A DNA stretch of 64,000 nt from an uncultured Gammaproteobacteria bacterium (GCA_964535715.1 CAZHUO010000002.1:16916-80915), one strand, 5' to 3'; counted from the first letter of the stretch, positions 219 through 45,573 are shown. The notes: generated from the letters alone by a model not told the origin. Translations and numbers: made by a program.

Positions 219-255
219 TTGACGTCTTGACATAAAAAACCCTATAATATAAGAT
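219..255 (+). promoter_or_regulatory. Candidate sigma70-type promoter with an abutting palindrome, upstream of the peptide/radical-SAM cassette
   Basis: TTGACG (219-224), 18 nt, TATAAT (243-248). An alternative is TTGACA (227-232), 17 nt, TAAGAT (250-255). The perfect palindrome ACGTCA-tctt-TGACGT (210-225) overlaps the -35. Pattern only. Confidence 0.4.
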
Positions 256-436
256 AAAGCGTTAAATTGGTGGCAAAGACGATTATTTTAGTGGTTAATT
301 TTTGTTGATTTTACCCCTTAAACCTATTATTTTGAGGGAAGTCTAAAAGTATAAACCAACAGAAACTAGCCACTTGCTAGATTGTCCTTTGTCATAAGCG
401 AACAGAATGTGAATGGTCGAAAGGAGGTGACAGGTC

Positions 437-520
437 ATGTTGAAAGAGTTCACGCTCGAGAAGCGGTCAAAGGTATCCAGCCGCACGTTGAAGGACGCGG
501 TGGACATGGACCAGGACTAG
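437..520 (+). CDS. 27-aa candidate RiPP precursor peptide (MLKEFTLEKRSKVSSRTLKDAVDMDQD)
   Basis: ATG 437 follows a consensus SD AAGGAGGTGA (421-430) with a 6-nt spacer. TAG 518-520 lies just upstream of the PqqD-like/rSAM/SPASM gene. The ORF is too short for the supplied track and has no homology support. Confidence 0.5.
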   Translation: MLKEFTLEKRSKVSSRTLKDAVDMDQD

Positions 521-530
521 GCCGAGAAGC

Positions 531-2018
531 GTGGGGAGGATGGTGGCTTTGCTAAAGGCAAGGTGCCATCCTCCCCCAACATTCATTCAGGAAAGGAAAA
601 AAGTGATGTATCCAATACTGGTTGATTGCCGAGTAAGGGGGGCTGAAGGTGACTATTACCTTCATCGTTACCGTACGGGTGATGAGTTTGTTCTTGACTC
701 GTTACAAGCACAAATTCTGCAAGCCTGCACAGGAGAGCATGATGTTGAATGGTTGTCCGGAGAGTTCAATCAGCCAGCCGCAGATATCATGATTTTCCTT
801 GACACGCTCCAAGAGGCTGGTCTGGTGATGAAAAGCGAGGGGGCAACAAAGATTGAGTTCGCAGCGCTCACCAAGCCGCCTTACCTCCGCGAAGTTCATA
901 TTGACGCCACAGGCTGGTGCAATCTCTTTGGAAAGTGTAAGCATTGTTACGGCCGACGAACATTCGAAGAAGCTACTAATGACCAGCTAACAACGGAAGA
1001 GATGATACAGCTCATCGAACAGCTTGGCCAGATGAATGTGGCAAACTGCGTAATGTCCGGTGGGGAAGTGTTCATGAGAAAAGATTTACCCCAACTGATC
1101 TCTTGTCTGGCCCAGCAGCACATCCATCTCACCGGTATCTTCACGAATGGAACGATTTATCGCGATGACGTTGTCGATGCGCTTCAAAAGGAAAAGATGA
1201 GGACTCGTTTTCTTGTCAGCCTTGATGGCCACACTCCCGAGATTCATGACTTTATGCGGGGTCACGGTAACTTTCAAAAGACGGTCGATTTCATCGGTCG
1301 GATTCACGCCGCAGGATTTCCGGTAACAATCAATACCGTGGTCATCAAGCAGAACGTTGCGCACCTAATGGCGATGGCTCGTTTCCTGGAAATCCTTGGA
1401 ACGGTTTACCTCTGGCGCATATCGGTACCTCGCGAACAGGGAGAGACGATTGTCAACAAGGAGCTTATTCTGCCAGACTGGAATGACGTTTTTGCAGCCT
1501 ATGAGCAATTGATCAGGTATGCAATCGCTTCCACTGGCGGGATGCAGTACCAGATCAGCTCAATCTTCAAGTCAGCGTTGCTTGAAGAGCCAATCTACTA
1601 CCTGTTCCGCCCGGAAAGTAGTTGCTGCGAATACAAGCGCAACTCCATTACGGTTAAGCCGAATGGCAAGGTTACTCCTTGTACCGCCTTTGACAATTTC
1701 GTCTTGGGTGATGTCAGGCAAAGCTCGTTGGCCGACATCTGGTACAGTGATCTGACGCAGTCATTCAAGGTTCTTCCAGTTCAAGCAACGGCCTGCAGAG
1801 GCTGCGAACTGTTGCCGTATTGTGGAGGTGGTTGTCGCAAAGTGGCATGGGAGATGCACGGCAGCGCTTTGGCTCTGGACGACAGCGCTTGCCCACTTTA
1901 CCGGTTTGCCCGGGATGTTGTCGGGCCCCTTCTGGAGGAACAGGGCGTAACGGCAGAACTGCTTGAGCGCCCCAGTACCTATCGGTTCGATCCACGCATC
2001 ATCGATCACGCGATATGA
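531..2018 (+). CDS. Radical SAM/SPASM peptide-modifying enzyme with a fused N-terminal PqqD-like RRE domain
   Basis: RRE-like segment FVLDSLQAQILQACTGEHDVEWLSGEF...IMIFLDTLQEAGLV. rSAM core GWCNLFGKCKHCYG, SGGEVF, SLDG. 7-Cys SPASM region CCEYKRNSITVKPNGKVTPC...CRGCELLPYCGGGC...ACPLY. The start is ambiguous: GTG 531, ATG 540, TTG 549, or ATG 606 (AGGA 8 nt upstream). Confidence 0.9.
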   Translation: MGRMVALLKARCHPPPTFIQERKKVMYPILVDCRVRGAEGDYYLHRYRTGDEFVLDSLQAQILQACTGEHDVEWLSGEFNQPAADIMIFLDTLQEAGLVMKSEGATKIEFAALTKPPYLREVHIDATGWCNLFGKCKHCYGRRTFEEATNDQLTTEEMIQLIEQLGQMNVANCVMSGGEVFMRKDLPQLISCLAQQHIHLTGIFTNGTIYRDDVVDALQKEKMRTRFLVSLDGHTPEIHDFMRGHGNFQKTVDFIGRIHAAGFPVTINTVVIKQNVAHLMAMARFLEILGTVYLWRISVPREQGETIVNKELILPDWNDVFAAYEQLIRYAIASTGGMQYQISSIFKSALLEEPIYYLFRPESSCCEYKRNSITVKPNGKVTPCTAFDNFVLGDVRQSSLADIWYSDLTQSFKVLPVQATACRGCELLPYCGGGCRKVAWEMHGSALALDDSACPLYRFARDVVGPLLEEQGVTAELLERPSTYRFDPRIIDHAI

Positions 2019-2032
2019 GCTAATTAAGTTAT

Positions 2033-2075
2033 GGAGGGGAGGAGTGAAAACCACGTCTTCCCTCCAATATTTTTA
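2033..2075 (+). terminator. Intrinsic terminator closing the GC-rich cassette
   Basis: GGAGGGGAGGA (2033-2043) pairs imperfectly with TCTTCCCTCC (2056-2065), followed by aatattttt. Confidence 0.55.
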
Positions 2076-2884
2076 TGAAAATGAAAAAAAATAAAACTAG
2101 GAAAGAGTGGTGGCAAAAAATTTTTGATCAGGATTATATTAAAACTTACATTGATATCACACCACAAGAGCTTACGGACAAGCAAGTCTCTTTTTTAATA
2201 AATAAATTAAAGCCGATTTCCAAAAAGAAAATTTTAGATTTGGGATGTGGTTATGGCCGTCATACTCTAAAGCTTGCTAAGCTCGGTTGTTCGATTATTG
2301 GTCTTGATTATTCCAAATTATTTTTGAATATTGCCAAAAGACAAGCCGCAAAAGAAGGCATTAAAGCAAATTTTGTTACAGGCGATATGAGGAAGCTTGG
2401 ATTTAAAAATAAGTTTGACGCGGTTATTTGTATGTTTACATCCTTTGGCTATTTTAATGAATACACAGATCATGAGGATACAATTAGGGGTGTTGCCAAA
2501 GCCCTTAAGTCAAAGGGAATATTTTTATTAGATTTGAATAACCCAGCTCGTCGGTTAGCAGGGATAATCAAGAATGGTAAGCTGGACAAAAAAAGGAAAA
2601 TTTTAATCACTAAAAAGATTTTTAAATTATCGAACGGTTTGAAAGTTACGATAACGCAAGAATTTGATTTGATTAAAATGCGTTGGAAATTAATTAGGCA
2701 GTGGAAGGAAGGTAAGAGGAATAAAAAGTATTCTTCAGATATTTATTTATTTACCTTGCCGGAAATTAAACACTTACTGGAACACAATGGATTTAAAGTT
2801 GAGAAAACATGGGGCGATTTTGACGGTTCACTGTTTAATCTTGAGAGTCGAAGGTTGATTATTTTAGCAAGAAAAAAATTGTAA
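2075..2884 (+). CDS. Class I SAM-dependent methyltransferase
   Basis: Motif I ILDLGCGYGRH, followed by FDAVICMFTSFGYF. Confidence 0.85.
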   Translation: MKMKKNKTRKEWWQKIFDQDYIKTYIDITPQELTDKQVSFLINKLKPISKKKILDLGCGYGRHTLKLAKLGCSIIGLDYSKLFLNIAKRQAAKEGIKANFVTGDMRKLGFKNKFDAVICMFTSFGYFNEYTDHEDTIRGVAKALKSKGIFLLDLNNPARRLAGIIKNGKLDKKRKILITKKIFKLSNGLKVTITQEFDLIKMRWKLIRQWKEGKRNKKYSSDIYLFTLPEIKHLLEHNGFKVEKTWGDFDGSLFNLESRRLIILARKKL

Positions 2885-2895
2885 TATTTTGCATT

Positions 2896-3312
2896 ATGAA
2901 AATTCGTTGGGCTAAAACCAATAAAGATTTTACCTATATTGCTTCTTTATTTAACCCAAAAAATAACCGATATGTTTGGCCGAAAACTCAAACCGCTAAG
3001 CAAGTTAAACAAAACTGCAGTGAAACCAGACGTTATTATATTTTATTAGTTAAGAATAAACCAGTTGGCTGGTTTAACACTCGTTTGTCCGACAGTAAAG
3101 AAGCAACCATTGGAATAATTATTGACTATCCCTACCAAGGTCAAGGTTTTGGCAAACAAGCTATGGCTTTAATTAAAAAGGAAGCAAAAAAATTAGGAAT
3201 GAGAAGATTGCGGCTGGAAGTTTTTTTGGATAATAAATCAGCTATCAATCTTTATAAGAAAACCGGCTTTCGAACAGCAGCTAAAGTGGTGGTAATGGAA
3301 AAGAAAATTTAG
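2896..3312 (+). CDS. GNAT family N-acetyltransferase
   Basis: Acetyl-CoA motif QGQGFGKQAM and C-terminal NKSAINLYKKTGF. Confidence 0.8.
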   Translation: MKIRWAKTNKDFTYIASLFNPKNNRYVWPKTQTAKQVKQNCSETRRYYILLVKNKPVGWFNTRLSDSKEATIGIIIDYPYQGQGFGKQAMALIKKEAKKLGMRRLRLEVFLDNKSAINLYKKTGFRTAAKVVVMEKKI

Positions 3313-3346
3313 ATATCTAAACTTATTTTGTTAAAAATTATTAACC

Positions 3347-3760
3347 ATGCGAGTACGAGCGATTATAATTAAGGACAATAAAATAATCCTGATTAAAAGA
3401 GTAAGACCTAATGAAACATATTGGGTTTTTCCCGGTGGCGGTGTTGATTCTGGCGAAACAAAAGAAAATGCCCTAGCTAGAGAAATTAAGGAAGAATTGG
3501 GTTTGGATATTGAAGTAAAAGAATTATTTCTAAAAAGGCAATCAGATAAACCGGGAATGGAAGGTATAATGGAATACTTTTTTTCGGCAGATATTATCGG
3601 TGGTGAGCTCGGCAGTGGCGATGGTCCGGAATACCAGAGTGGTACTAATTATGAAGGTAATTACAAAATTGATTTAATTGACATTGGTGATTTAGACCAA
3701 ATCAATTTAAAACCAAAAGAAGCTAAGGATTTGGTTCTAAAATTATCTAGTCAAAAATGA
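3347..3760 (+). CDS. NUDIX hydrolase
   Basis: Nudix box GGGVDSGETKENALAREIKEELGL. Confidence 0.85.
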   Translation: MRVRAIIIKDNKIILIKRVRPNETYWVFPGGGVDSGETKENALAREIKEELGLDIEVKELFLKRQSDKPGMEGIMEYFFSADIIGGELGSGDGPEYQSGTNYEGNYKIDLIDIGDLDQINLKPKEAKDLVLKLSSQK

Positions 3761-4386
3761 AAAGAATTATTTTAACATCCCACGGATTCGAAAAAAATAA
3801 GAAATTAAAGCAGCAACTTCTTGGATTACTGCCATCTTTGACTAAAAATTTATCCGTTGTTATTATAACAACCGCTTCAGCCGAATGGAAGGAAAAAAAT
3901 AAACATGCCGTTTCCGCTAAACAAGCGTTGGAAAATATGGGATTTAAAAAGGTAGCTTTTCTGGACGTAGAATTTGAAAGTCCAAATAAGCTAAAGGATT
4001 TTAATTTAATTTATATTTGTGGTGGAAATCCATTTTATCTTTTATATCACCTTAAGAAAAGCGGAGCTGACAAAGTAATTCAGAAGCTAGCAGACAAGGG
4101 AGTTATCTTAGTTGGTGTTAGCGCTGGTGCTGTAGTATTAGGCCCAAGTATCAAAGTCGCTCAATATTTTGATGATGAGAAAAATATTGTTAAGTTAAAA
4201 AATTTTTCTGCCTTGAAACTAACTGACATTATAATTTTACCTCATTATAAAATAGAATACGAAAATAAAGTAAAAGATTTTGAAAAAGAAAATCATTGTC
4301 AGGTTACTCGTCTAAAAGATAGCCAAGGCGTTACGGTAATTGAAGATAAAATTAAGCCCATTGATTTCGGCGGCCGCAAACCGTAA
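3757..4386 (+). CDS. Peptidase S51 (dipeptidase E-like)
   Basis: ICGGNPFYLLYHL and VGVSAGAVVLG, the S51 nucleophile context. ATGA start/stop overlap with the preceding gene. Confidence 0.75.
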   Translation: MKRIILTSHGFEKNKKLKQQLLGLLPSLTKNLSVVIITTASAEWKEKNKHAVSAKQALENMGFKKVAFLDVEFESPNKLKDFNLIYICGGNPFYLLYHLKKSGADKVIQKLADKGVILVGVSAGAVVLGPSIKVAQYFDDEKNIVKLKNFSALKLTDIIILPHYKIEYENKVKDFEKENHCQVTRLKDSQGVTVIEDKIKPIDFGGRKP

Positions 4387-4419
4387 TTTGCGGTACAAGT
4401 AGCCTACTTTCAGTATCAG

Positions 4420-4738
4420 AATAATGGAATTGGATCAAATACTAATTACTCAGACTTAAAAACAGGACACACCAGTGTCCGATTTTTGGGACAGCACAAT
4501 ATCCCTGTCCCGTGTCCGATTTGTCCAATTTTGTAGAATTAGGCCTGACCGAGATGCCTCAAACTCGCCTCTAGTAAATACTCTAAATAACCCTTATAAT
4601 GCTTGTAAAGTTTCGGTTCTAGACCGAGGTACACTGCCAGAAAATCGCCGAAGAGGCGTTTTTTTGCCTGTCCGCCTCTCTGGCTCGCCATTCGGTGGCT
4701 TGCGGGGTATAATGTAACTAATAATTAATTCCATTATT
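4420..4738. repeat. IR-bounded GC-rich non-coding island (candidate ncRNA, regulatory array or MITE-like insert)
   Basis: A perfect 12-bp inverted repeat, AATAATGGAATT (4420-4431) / AATTCCATTATT (4727-4738), encloses palindromes GGACAC-acca-GTGTCC (4465-4480) and GGGACAG-N10-CTGTCCC (4488-4511), direct repeats GTGTCCGATTT (4475-4485, 4512-4522) and a terminator. Confidence 0.45.
4641..4665 (+). terminator. Intrinsic terminator inside the non-coding island
   Basis: aaaatCGCC-gaaga-GGCG followed by seven T (4659-4665). The stem is short (4 GC pairs). Confidence 0.45.
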
Positions 4739-4754
4739 TTTAACCAATATCATT

Positions 4755-5822: not shown

Positions 5823-6845
5823 ATGGATTTAGATAGAATAAATGAAATACTAAAATCATATCAGTTTTTTCGGCGCAAGCAGGTTGATGAAGCGATTTTT
5901 AATCGCTTGGCTTCTAATTGGTCTGAAGTTTCCAACTTGCCCAAAGATCTGATTGAAATTCTTCAAAATGAATGCCCTTTGGAAATCAAAGCGAAAACCT
6001 TTGAAACCAAAGACAAAAAAACCGTAAAAGCTGCAATTATATTGTCAGACAATAAGGAAATCGAAACTGTTTTAATGCGTCATAAAGACAATCGCAATAC
6101 GGTCTGCGTATCTTGCCAGGTCGGCTGCGCTTTAAACTGCGCTTTTTGCGCAACCGGCCAGCAGGGCTTTTGCCGAGATCTGACATCTTCGGAAATTATT
6201 TTGCAGGTTTTATATTTTGCCCGCTTTTTAAAAAAAGAAAACGCCAAAATTACCAATGTTGTTTTTATGGGCATGGGCGAGCCGTTTTTGAATTATGATA
6301 ATGTAATGAAGGCGATTTATTGGCTGAATGACAAAGATAAATTTAATTTAGGAAGCCGCCAAATTTCCATTTCAACTTCAGGAATTATTGAAGGCATAAA
6401 TAAGCTTGCCAAAGAGCCATTGCAGGTAAATTTGGCTTTTTCATTTCATGCTGTTGATAACGATTTACGAACCAAGCTTATGCCGATTAACCAAACTAAT
6501 TCCTTGAGTAAAGTATTGGAGGCAATCGGCAATTATATTGAGAAAACAAATCGGCGGGTAATGATTGAATATCTAATGCTTGAAAATATTAATGATTCAG
6601 AAAATTCGGCTCTTGACTTGGCCAAGCTTTTAAAGAAAAAACTGCATCGACTTTTTTTTGTCAATTTGATCAGTTACAATGCGACTGAAAAATTTCAGCC
6701 TTCAAACCCGGAAACAATAAAAAAATTCAAAAGCATTTTGGAAAAAGAGGGAATTGTTGTGGTTCAAAGATATCGCTTCGGAACAGATATTAAAGCCGCC
6801 TGCGGCCAGCTGGCTTTAAATAGAGTAAAATTAAAAGACAAATAA
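5823..6845 (+). CDS. rlmN: 23S rRNA/tRNA (adenine-C2)-methyltransferase RlmN (radical SAM)
   Basis: CQVGCALNCAFCATGQQGF, GMGEPFLNYDNV, C-terminal ACGQL. Confidence 0.9.
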   Translation: MDLDRINEILKSYQFFRRKQVDEAIFNRLASNWSEVSNLPKDLIEILQNECPLEIKAKTFETKDKKTVKAAIILSDNKEIETVLMRHKDNRNTVCVSCQVGCALNCAFCATGQQGFCRDLTSSEIILQVLYFARFLKKENAKITNVVFMGMGEPFLNYDNVMKAIYWLNDKDKFNLGSRQISISTSGIIEGINKLAKEPLQVNLAFSFHAVDNDLRTKLMPINQTNSLSKVLEAIGNYIEKTNRRVMIEYLMLENINDSENSALDLAKLLKKKLHRLFFVNLISYNATEKFQPSNPETIKKFKSILEKEGIVVVQRYRFGTDIKAACGQLALNRVKLKDK

Positions 6846-15790: not shown

Positions 15791-15847
15791 TCGGGCTGGG
15801 GAGATTCGAACTCCCGACCTCATCGTCCCGAACGATGCGCGCTAGCC
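15791..15847 (-). pseudogene. tRNA-Pro 3' fragment (D-loop to acceptor, no CCA)
   Basis: 57 of 57 identical to 16149-16205 of the intact tRNA. It diverges on both sides. Confidence 0.8.
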
Positions 15848-16123
15848 CCCGCCAGAGGCGGGTCGGCCTTTGGCGGAAGCTGCTCTAATAATTATATTAC
15901 GAACTTGTCTTCCAAATCCACTTTTGTAAAATTTTTCTCTCATAATAGCATCCTGTTCGCATAAGTATTTTTCAAAATATAATAATATTAGATGACCATT
16001 CTCACGTGTCCATTTGTTCGATTTCTGATTATGTTGTTTTAATCTGTCTTCTGGATTAATTTTTGAGTAACCGACGTATATCTTTCCATTTTTTATACTT
16101 TTTAAAAAATATACATAAAACAT
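15842..16123 (-). CDS. GIY-YIG nuclease family protein
   Basis: MFYVYFLKSIKNGKIYVGYS...RLKQHN...REKFYKS. The stop TAG (15842-15844) lies inside the tRNA fragment. The GC-hairpin-encoded tail is AASAKGRPASGGG. Confidence 0.75.
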   Translation of the reverse strand: MFYVYFLKSIKNGKIYVGYSKINPEDRLKQHNQKSNKWTRENGHLILLYFEKYLCEQDAIMREKFYKSGFGRQVRNIIIRAASAKGRPASGGG

Positions 16124-16145: not shown

Positions 16146-16222
16146 TGGTCGGGCTGGGGAGATTCGAACTCCCGACCTCATCGTCCCGAACGATGCGCGC
16201 TAGCCAGCTGCGCTACAGCCCG
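16146..16222 (-). tRNA. tRNA-Pro (anticodon CGG), CCA encoded
   Basis: CGGGCTG-TA-GCGC-AGCTGGCTA-GCGC-G-CATCG-TTCGGGA-CGATG-AGGTC-GGGAG-TTCGAAT-CTCCC-CAGCCCG-A-CCA folds as a canonical 77-nt cloverleaf. Confidence 0.9.
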
Positions 16223-44135: not shown

Positions 44136-45573
44136 GATATTATTAATAAATCCGGCTTTTAATATTGCCAAAGACAACTACGACAGTTCGATTTCAGTCG
44201 GATTATTAAGTATTGCCACATACTTAGATAGTCAAGGAGTAGGGGTGGAAATAGTTGATGGAGCAAGACAAAATAATTATTTGGATTTAATCAAAGCTAA
44301 AGCCTCAGGTTATAATTTTTTCGGCTTGTCGGTAATGACCACTCAAATCCCTGGTGCTTTAAAAATAAGCCAATTAATAAAAGATTTAAATCCAAACTGT
44401 AAAATTATTTGGGGTGGAACCCATCCAACCTTTTTTCCAAAAGAAACAATCGCACATCCTTTAGTTGATATTGTTTGTATTGGCGAAGGGGAATCTACCG
44501 TTTTGGATATAGCTAGCGGTAAAAGTTTAGAAGGAATTGACGGCATTGTCTATAAAAGGAATGATGAAATTATTACTAATCATCCGCGCAAATTGCACAA
44601 TCCCGCCGATATGCCTATTTTTAAATGGAGCCTGATACCGGAAGTGATTTTAAAAAAGTTGGAATTAGTTCCGTCTTTGACTTCGCGTGGTTGTCCGCAC
44701 CGTTGCACTTTTTGTATAAATGCTATTTTGAAAAATAAGTGGCGTGGTCGTACTGTTGATCAAGTTTTGAGTGATTTGGAAACTATAAAAAATAATATAT
44801 ATTTTAAGGGGAAAAATGTAAGATTTTGGGATGAAAATTTTTTTGTTGATATTAATAGATCTAAAGAAATTATCAACGGTATGATTGAAAGAAGTTTAGA
44901 AATACCGTGGGAAACAACAATCAGGGTTGATTATATTAAGGATGGGCAAGTTGATGATAATTTTTTGGCGAAAATTAAAAAGTCCGGCTGTTATCTTCTT
45001 TCTTTCGGAGCGGAATCGGGGTCATCGGAAATTTTAGCCAAGATAAAAAAGGATATTACTGCTGAAGAAATTTTGAATTCGGCAAGAATGTGTTTAAAAC
45101 ATAATATTATTCCTCAATATTCTTTTATGATCGGGTTGCCGGGTGAAAGCAAAAAGGATATGAAGATGACCCTGAAGGTTATTGATCGACTAGTTAAACT
45201 AAGCGATAAAGTTCAAATTCTTGGTCCTCAGGCTTTTAGGCCATATCCGGGATCCACTTTGTATGAAGAATGTATTACTGCTGGCTGGCAGGCTCCTAAA
45301 ACTTTGGAGGATTGGTCTCATTTGATAGAAAATGAATTAAGTTATCTAACTGTTCAAAATTTTCCCTGGGTTAAATATAAAAATTTTGTTGAATCAATGG
45401 AAGCCTATGTCCGTTTTGGCGCCCATAACATTAAAAGTGCAATGGGTTCAACTGTTAAGGCTAAAAAGCTGGTAAAATTAATTTTTGTTTTAATTTGTAA
45501 ATTAAGATGGAAGTTGAAATTTTTTGCCTGGCCAATAGAATTTAAATTAGCTAAAAGGTTTGTTACCAAGTAA
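44128..45573 (+). CDS. B12-binding domain radical SAM protein (class B-like)
   Basis: N-terminal B12-domain-like region (GLSVMTTQ, IIWGGTHPT) followed by TSRGCPHRCTFC (CX3CX2C). Confidence 0.8.
   Translation: MNKILLINPAFNIAKDNYDSSISVGLLSIATYLDSQGVGVEIVDGARQNNYLDLIKAKASGYNFFGLSVMTTQIPGALKISQLIKDLNPNCKIIWGGTHPTFFPKETIAHPLVDIVCIGEGESTVLDIASGKSLEGIDGIVYKRNDEIITNHPRKLHNPADMPIFKWSLIPEVILKKLELVPSLTSRGCPHRCTFCINAILKNKWRGRTVDQVLSDLETIKNNIYFKGKNVRFWDENFFVDINRSKEIINGMIERSLEIPWETTIRVDYIKDGQVDDNFLAKIKKSGCYLLSFGAESGSSEILAKIKKDITAEEILNSARMCLKHNIIPQYSFMIGLPGESKKDMKMTLKVIDRLVKLSDKVQILGPQAFRPYPGSTLYEECITAGWQAPKTLEDWSHLIENELSYLTVQNFPWVKYKNFVESMEAYVRFGAHNIKSAMGSTVKAKKLVKLIFVLICKLRWKLKFFAWPIEFKLAKRFVTK

Follow-up and report, generated by a model that had tools for sequence, protein, structure and literature searches.

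Introduction

Departures from the canonical CX3CX2C spacing of the three cysteines at the S-adenosylmethionine (SAM) cluster site of radical SAM enzymes have already been described. HmdB, also named HcgA, carries CX5CX2C and ThiC carries CX2CX4C (PMC4389238, PMC10100467), as the first-pass annotation of the DNA described here correctly stated, and HcgA binds a [4Fe-4S] cluster and cleaves SAM, yielding 5'-deoxyadenosine (PMC10100467). QueE with a CX14CX2C motif shows canonical cluster binding despite its extended loop (PMC4389238), and variants from CX4 to CX11 are found in several megaclusters of RadicalSAM.org (PMC9477430). Here we analyse a stretch of 64,000 nucleotides from an uncultured Gammaproteobacteria bacterium (GCA_964535715.1 CAZHUO010000002.1:16916-80915), referred to as the window, in which a predicted radical SAM/SPASM peptide maturase, encoded next to a small peptide gene, carries the CX5CX2C spacing.

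The variation of the motif is in itself a known kind of thing. What is new is the CX5CX2C variant in SPASM peptide maturases, and the finding that the spacing toggles inside one enzyme-substrate family. We consider it likely that the CX5 spacing is a tolerated loop-length polymorphism within this family, a lineage marker and not the sign of a new reaction, and that the three cysteines are the ligands of the SAM cluster.

Results

The cysteine triad and the fold of the maturase

A direct read of the sequence bears out the motif reported in the first-pass annotation: the cysteine codons are TGC at 918-920, TGT at 936-938 and TGT at 945-947, all in frame with the open reading frame (ORF) 606-2018 of the plus strand, and the local residues GW-C-NLFGK-C-KH-C-YG give CX5CX2C. 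The stop codon of the maturase gene is at 2016-2018 and, since all homologues open with MYPxLxxCxVRG, its true start is the ATG at 606, for a protein of 470 residues. In an alignment of 49 family sequences C105, C111 and C114 are invariant, and the N-terminal half contains no further invariant cysteine. With the family profile, each column of the triad falls on its counterpart in the CX3CX2C triads of PqqE, SkfB and SuiB. The earlier assignment of the triad to the SAM-cluster position is thus upheld, and a different set of cysteines as cluster ligand was ruled out on these grounds. The description of the motif as CNLxCxHC plus two residues also agrees with the alignment, in which MAFFT placed the gap as CNLW--C against CNLFGKC.

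Domains and families were scanned for with Pfam and NCBIfam at their curated cut-offs. Pfam recognises Radical_SAM (PF04055) at residues 102-261 (88.1 bits, cut-off 29.5) and SPASM (PF13186) at residues 341-401 (46.6 bits, cut-off 21.5). The SAM-binding motifs G152-G153-E154 (GGE), T180-N181 and S205 are invariant in the 49 sequences, and D207 is nearly so. The seven cysteines of the SPASM motif, C341-X12-G-X4-C359, C397-X2-C400-X5-C406-X3-C410 and C429, are all invariant as well, and they reproduce the pattern by which two auxiliary clusters are recognised (CX9-15GX4C ... CX2CX5CX3C ... C). The AlphaFold2 model calculated from the family alignment (predicted local distance difference test, pLDDT, 95.3; predicted template modelling score 0.93) shows alternating beta/alpha elements that span 96 to 273, and the motif sits between strand 96-100 and helix 117-123 (block pLDDT 92 and 86), which is the place where radical SAM enzymes hold their cluster. 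The maturase has therefore the profile score, the SAM-binding motifs and the partial TIM-barrel of the radical SAM superfamily, and departs from it in the CX3CX2C spacing.

The nearest folds returned by Foldseek are SkfB, SuiB, PqqE, CteB, anSME and ChlB, which are peptide- or protein-modifying SPASM/twitch enzymes, and the alignments with SuiB extend over about 470 columns and cover the N-terminal domain. In the model, this domain (residues 2-77) is composed of four strands, three helices and one further strand; its PqqD match is weak and below threshold (E 0.037, 14.8 bits for a cut-off of 23.4), and PF05402 is present in more distant homologues. It likely functions as a recognition element (RRE) for peptides synthesised ribosomally and modified post-translationally (RiPPs).

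No NCBIfam family scored above its cut-off for the window maturase, for five further enzymes including relatives with canonical spacing, or for six peptide variants. The best match of the window maturase is ScmE (TIGR04250), with 136.8 bits for a cut-off of 400, while the PqqE and MftC equivalogs (105 bits for 381 and 94.5 for 265) are not reached. The sactipeptide and ranthipeptide models also stay far below their cut-offs (StsB, 123 bits for 625; AlbA, 66 for 850), and PapB is not among the best 25 matches. The database names of the homologues are generic, and literature searches on CX5CX2C in SPASM enzymes and on radical SAM peptides of Patescibacteria returned nothing relevant. With no NCBIfam model that fits and nothing found in the literature searched, we regard the enzyme-peptide family as undescribed.

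Conservation of the two-residue insert

Among 120 database matches, a sharply bounded family (P0001-P0041; E < 1e-117, 41-100% identity) stands out, with distant relatives beyond it. Core-family counts refer to full-length clusters at 90% identity (n = 42). The motif CNL[FY]G[KQIRHV]CKHC is found in 21 of the 42 clusters, down to about 50% identity, and the other 21 have the canonical spacing, nearly always as CNLWCKHC. Across the 21 CX5 core sequences the inserted Phe/Tyr and Gly never vary. Across nine loci all four Gly codons (GGA, GGC, GGG and GGT) occur for the inserted residue, and the cysteines are encoded by TGC or TGT; a fixed [FY]-G pair with synonymous codon change points to purifying selection on a real insertion. 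Moreover, contigs of the independent samples SRR29243440 and SRR11845634 encode the identical maturase protein. A sequencing artefact, a frameshift, a chance cysteine pattern or a singleton were ruled out by the independent contigs, the 21 CX5 clusters and the synonymous codon variation, so that the insert flagged in the first-pass annotation is a recurrent feature of the family.

Beyond the core family and one sister clade, essentially all relatives with an identifiable motif are CX3CX2C: an exhaustive profile search gave 145 representatives, of which 131 have CX3 and 3 have CX5 spacing, and most of the others are fragments without the N-terminal motif. The rarity that had been claimed for variant spacings is relative, since CX4 to CX11 spacings are found elsewhere in the superfamily (PMC9477430).

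Evolutionary history of the spacing

The history of the spacing was traced in neighbour-joining trees with 300 bootstrap replicates, from which the motif columns had been excluded. P0122 was treated as a long-branch canonical member of the core family and not as an outgroup. The core family is monophyletic (bootstrap 1.00) and the CX5 set is not recovered as such (0.01), whereas the canonical W clade without P0015 is monophyletic (0.72) and the canonical sequences group with the CX5 lineages P0009, P0012, P0014, P0026 and P0027 (0.78). On these values, the CX5 sequences form a paraphyletic grade, with the canonical CNLWC clade nested inside it. The outgroups P0045, P0046, P0121, P0124-P0126 and P0128 are all CX3, with Arg, Lys, Ser or Asn as third spacer residue. 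With CX3 outgroups and a nested canonical clade, the fewest changes are needed if the insert arose in the ancestor of the family and was then removed by a change of [FY]Gx to W. The two-residue insert was thus probably gained at the base of the core family and later lost in the nested W clade, and the revertants retain an aromatic residue (Trp) instead of Arg or Lys, which fits this direction.

A second CX5 clade of 14 sequences was found by a search seeded with P0047. Its insert reads CN[LQ]A-x-[HYFWMQ]-C, all its named members come from Patescibacteria lineages (Curtissbacteria, Uhrbacteria and Paceibacterota), and its nearest relatives are canonical (CNLRC.HCFWG). A second clade with a different insert and canonical sisters indicates that a lengthening by two residues at this same site arose at least twice.

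A conserved precursor peptide adjoins the maturase gene

Upstream of the maturase gene, a strong ribosome-binding site (AAGGAGGTGA, at 421-430) lies ahead of a small peptide ORF (Table 1). Related loci, numbered L001 onwards, were gathered by a search with a 30-sequence enzyme alignment. Homologues of the peptide ORF are found 9-97 nucleotides upstream of the maturase gene at more than 20 loci of both clades, and no locus with enough upstream sequence is without one. The 16 distinct peptides align without gaps, L2, R10, T17, K19, V22 and D23 being invariant, and in them an LKxFxL leader is followed by a core with invariant [AS]-V-D; this core has neither a conserved cysteine nor a conserved aromatic residue. 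In the ten-codon core RTLKDAVDMD, as compared between the window, L001 and L008, six codons differ, all of them synonymously. The peptides of the second clade and of its canonical sister are built alike, with an LKxFxL-type leader followed by KR[TM]x[AS][AS]VD[MR][DE], and [AS]-V-D followed by an acidic tail is common to all peptides. A RiPP locus is characterised by a conserved gene for a short precursor that lies beside the enzyme gene in the same orientation, and we infer from this arrangement that the peptide is the substrate of the adjoining maturase.

Spacing and function

Enzymes of both spacings are accompanied by precursor peptides of identical register and core, in gapless alignment, and the presence of the same precursor family beside both spacings argues that the spacing marks lineages and not a new substrate class. 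Furthermore, the other radical SAM enzymes of this genome have the canonical CX3CX2C, which indicates that the host does not require the longer loop. These are an RlmN-like enzyme with CALNCAFC at 6126-6149 (ORF 5823-6845) and another, with CPHRCTFC, at 44692-44715.

Several observations weigh against a merely tolerated polymorphism. The [FY]-G pair is strictly conserved, both independent inserts are of exactly two residues, and both put an aromatic residue or His in the spacer where the canonical outgroups have Arg or Lys. A conserved and recurrent aromatic insert hints at a selected role, such as cluster shielding, redox tuning or reductant docking. In addition, the phylogeny was built by neighbour-joining only, and P0015, a canonical sequence amid CX5 sequences, is poorly placed in it (0.33 with P0014, P0026 and P0027; 0.41 for CX3 monophyly including P0015).

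The first three of these observations lead to the alternative that survives best, namely an adaptive loop in which the aromatic residue near the cluster would tune its redox potential, its exposure to solvent or oxygen, or the way in which the electron donor docks, in these bacteria of reduced genome, the substrate and the reaction being unchanged. That the clade which reverted to CX3 keeps an aromatic Trp, and not Arg or Lys, speaks in its favour too. However, the hosts of the canonical clade are of the same kinds and its precursor is the same, and the other radical SAM enzymes of the window's own genome are canonical, so that we hold this alternative to be rather unlikely.

The first-pass annotation had suggested that the spacing could mark a distinct subfamily of peptide-modifying enzymes. 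In the functional sense, that is with a substrate or chemistry of its own, such a subfamily would be in keeping with the peptide tails, which read VD[MA]D... with most CX5 core enzymes and VDSFGPDD with most canonical ones, and with the fact that no curated family covers the CX5 enzymes. Against it, the core motif and register are identical in the two groups, the CX5 enzyme of L026 is paired with an SFGP-type tail, and in the second clade the CX5 enzymes and the canonical sister P0050 share RT[HY]ASVD peptides. As the CX5 sequences are moreover paraphyletic (monophyly in 1% of replicates), with the canonical clade inside, this proposal has become improbable. Finally, the insert is most improbably a lesion that disables SAM-cluster binding and turns the protein into a pseudo-radical-SAM scaffold, an idea to which the non-canonical spacing and a weak match to the NCBIfam 'pseudo-SAM/SPASM' family (71.5 bits for a cut-off of 525) could lend colour, since the three cysteines, the GGE and the ribose motifs are invariant under purifying selection and an active CX5CX2C enzyme is known (PMC10100467).

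Tolerated loop-length variation between lineages thus remains our preferred explanation of the CX5 spacing.

Organisation of the operon

The features of the locus are collected in Table 1. The promoter lies downstream of the terminator of the preceding gene (167-182), and the hairpin proper of the terminator that follows the maturase gene extends from 2032 to 2066. Promoter, inter-gene hairpin and terminator make of the peptide and maturase genes a self-contained transcription unit. Of 13 loci, 11 have a comparable hairpin between the two genes, the sequences being unrelated, and between the window and L001 the stem shows three compensatory double substitutions. It is probably a partial terminator or a messenger RNA stabiliser that sets the peptide to enzyme ratio, and the order of peptide, hairpin and enzyme is the classic RiPP precursor/enzyme attenuator layout. 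The 5' leader contains a perfect palindrome, CTAGCCACTTGCTAG, at 366-380, which is kept between the window and L001 and partly in L008; it could act as an operator or form a small RNA hairpin.

Table 1 Features of the maturase locus, in window coordinates.
Feature	Position	Strand	Basis or remark
Sigma-70-like promoter, TTGACG-18-TATAAT	219..248	+	11/12 consensus matches; consensus match only
Conserved 5' leader, left edge of GC-rich block	357..436	+	DNA alignment of window, L001 and L008; GC profile
Precursor peptide gene, 27 amino acids, MLKEFTLEKRSKVSSRTLKDAVDMDQD	437..520	+	Homologous small ORFs at other maturase loci
Stem-loop between peptide and enzyme genes	533..576	+	-36 kcal/mol, z = -3.3
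Peptide maturase gene, 470 amino acids	606..2018	+	RRE-like winged helix ~1-77, radical SAM core ~96-310, SPASM ~330-445
CX5CX2C radical SAM cluster motif	918..947	+	C105-NLFGK-C111-KH-C114, predicted in beta1-alpha1 loop
Terminator-like hairpin and T-run directly after maturase stop, right edge of GC-rich block	2032..2074	+	-24 kcal/mol, z = -5.1
Class I SAM-dependent methyltransferase	2075..2884	+	Pfam; GC content at third codon positions (GC3) 0.33 vs 0.56 in maturase
GNAT acetyltransferase	2896..3312	+	Pfam Acetyltransf_1

The ends of the operon are also those of a block with a GC content of about 50%, against some 33% for the genome. Judged by this low GC content and by the taxonomy of the closest homologues, and not by a marker gene, the host is probably a member of the Patescibacteria. 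In the window, GC3 is 0.56 in the maturase gene and 0.33 and 0.30 in the adjacent methyltransferase/GNAT genes (437-2018 compared with 2075-4386), and at seven AT-rich loci (the window, L001, L008, L009, L024, L029 and L051) the GC3 of the peptide and maturase genes is 10-26 points above that of the adjacent methyltransferase/GNAT genes. Between the window and L001 synteny is kept and synonymous sites are saturated, with a third-position identity of 0.46 in identical codons. A simple recent horizontal transfer that has not been ameliorated was therefore rejected as origin of the GC-rich cassette, because synonymous sites are saturated and yet GC3 is high in both the window and L001. In loci of alphaproteobacterial type, the cassette is instead AT-richer than its flanks. 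At L021, a locus of Portnoybacteria type, a transposase of insertion sequence type (HTH_38 and rve integrase core, 945-1964) lies directly upstream of the cassette, which fits a mobile cassette.

Neighbouring genes and other features of the window

Behind the maturase gene, L001 and L008 carry a homologue of the methyltransferase (60-73% identity), and in L050 the maturase gene of the outgroup P0046 likewise precedes a methyltransferase gene. In L009, L024 and L029 it is a homologue of the GNAT acetyltransferase that immediately follows the maturase gene, and L051 has one as well. This recurrence spans loci of both spacing types. The two proteins may be tailoring enzymes, or the region may merely be a preferred neighbourhood for insertion; their membership in the system is uncertain because of their host-like GC content and their position beyond the terminator. 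In three of the four loci of the second CX5 clade, the maturase gene is directly followed by a GT1-type glycosyltransferase gene (UDPGT/EryCIII-like; L048 1895-3091, L052 3895-5070 and L054 3929-5113). L053 is the sole locus of this clade without it, and its peptide also lacks an otherwise conserved Thr, which suggests that the Thr/Ser ahead of the VD core is glycosylated in a lineage-specific manner.

A HisKA_7TM (GAF) histidine kinase gene adjoins the cassette in L001 (464-3553), L008 (918-2582) and L054 (6133-6392), that is in both CX5 clades, and in L001 it is accompanied by two receiver-only response regulators. This neighbourhood may link the peptide to signalling. No HisKA_7TM kinase gene is present upstream of the cassette in the window; in L046, the extended copy, the upstream gene encodes a low-molecular-weight phosphatase.

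Elsewhere in the window, a GC-richer intergenic region of about 340 nucleotides (4400-4745) has no convincing ORF. Its minus strand folds better than shuffled sequences (z = -3.45), a bidirectional terminator-like palindrome, GGACACACCAGTGTCC, is found at about 4466-4481, and Rfam gave no match to the region even at E <= 1; an undescribed small RNA may be encoded here. A tRNA-Pro(CGG) at 16146-16222 of the minus strand was called by both Rfam and ARAGORN, and a weak tRNA match at 15791-15861 of the same strand scores 30.6 bits, just above the gathering score, where ARAGORN calls none.

Discussion

From the conserved motifs, the model and the gene order, a mechanism may be proposed for this maturase. 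The gene would be co-transcribed with that of its own 27-residue substrate, and the N-terminal domain of the three-domain enzyme would bind the LKxFxL leader. C105, C111 and C114 would ligate the SAM-binding [4Fe-4S] cluster, and the SPASM domain would hold two auxiliary clusters. The two extra residues are predicted to lengthen a surface loop in the segment between the first and second cysteines only, leaving unchanged the CX2C segment with His113 inside. As this half and the SAM-binding motifs are untouched, cluster binding and SAM cleavage should be usual. The 5'-deoxyadenosyl radical would then abstract a hydrogen within the [AS]-V-D core, and the product could be cross-linked, through an ether or a carbon-carbon bond, or epimerised.

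The family offers a natural experiment, in which close homologues acting on the same substrate differ only as CX5 and CX3, in a history made up of a gain, a loss and a second, independent gain. How the length of the loop affects the cluster potential, the cleavage of SAM and the docking of reductants would be directly testable through two residues. Filters that demand CX3CX2C would miss half of this maturase family. Furthermore, the enzyme-peptide pair is an unnamed system that appears to act as a mobile module and is common in the ultra-small Patescibacteria, about whose secondary metabolism and signalling next to nothing is known, and its peptide substrate is without the residues used in all well-known radical SAM peptide cross-links. 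A wider proposal, which we put forward tentatively as possible and not as probable, is that of an undescribed RiPP-like class, widespread in Patescibacteria and present in some Alphaproteobacteria, whose [AS]-V-D core would be modified outside the known thioether and arene cross-links, with lineage-specific tailoring (methyltransferase/GNAT or GT1), a product that could be a signal, in view of the recurrent 7TM kinase genes nearby, and a loop lengthening that would be an adaptive tuning of the cluster.

Among known systems, the best structural and sequence matches are SuiB/StrB, which forms the Lys-Trp cross-link of streptide, the sactipeptide synthases CteB and SkfB, and PqqE (SuiB, CteB, SkfB and PqqE: Foldseek E 1e-16 to 1e-13, PDB profile E 1e-24 to 1e-21). 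These enzymes share with the window maturase the radical SAM core, the SPASM/twitch C-terminus and a precursor encoded nearby, and SuiB, CteB and SkfB probably also an RRE-type N-terminus. They differ from it in that identity is only 16-19%, in that all are canonical CX3CX2C, and in their substrates, which provide Cys, Trp or Tyr as cross-link partners where the conserved core of the window peptide has none. ScmE of the SynChlorMet cassette (TIGR04250) is of the same domain type, yet the window maturase is not a member of its family (136.8 bits against 400). SCIFF and its maturase constitute a stand-alone two-gene cassette like the window pair, in which a conserved short peptide goes with one radical SAM/SPASM enzyme and no conserved transporter or protease is known to stand beside them; SCIFF is rich in cysteines and its enzyme forms thioethers, whereas the window-type peptide is without conserved cysteine.

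As for the spacing, HcgA (HmdB), an enzyme of FeGP-cofactor biosynthesis, has the same CX5CX2C at the SAM-cluster site as the window maturase. HcgA is not known to have a SPASM or RRE domain. It differs furthermore in being a relative of the HydE/HydG/BioB type and no peptide maturase (PMC10100467). The 25 best NCBIfam matches of the window maturase, in which SPASM is present, do not include HcgA/HmdB, and the spacing shared by the two is convergent.

Within QueE, the variable region E45-W67 of the Escherichia coli enzyme (PMC11142719) was considered as a precedent and not used, being a different feature from inserts in the first spacer. The QueE (7-carboxy-7-deazaguanine synthase) with CX14CX2C differs from the window maturase in its fold variant, its substrate and the length of its insert, and its insertion too lies between the first and second cysteines only. 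Other QueE orthologues, for example that of Bacillus subtilis, are CX3CX2C, so that the spacing varies there within one isofunctional family, as it does in the maturase family described here.

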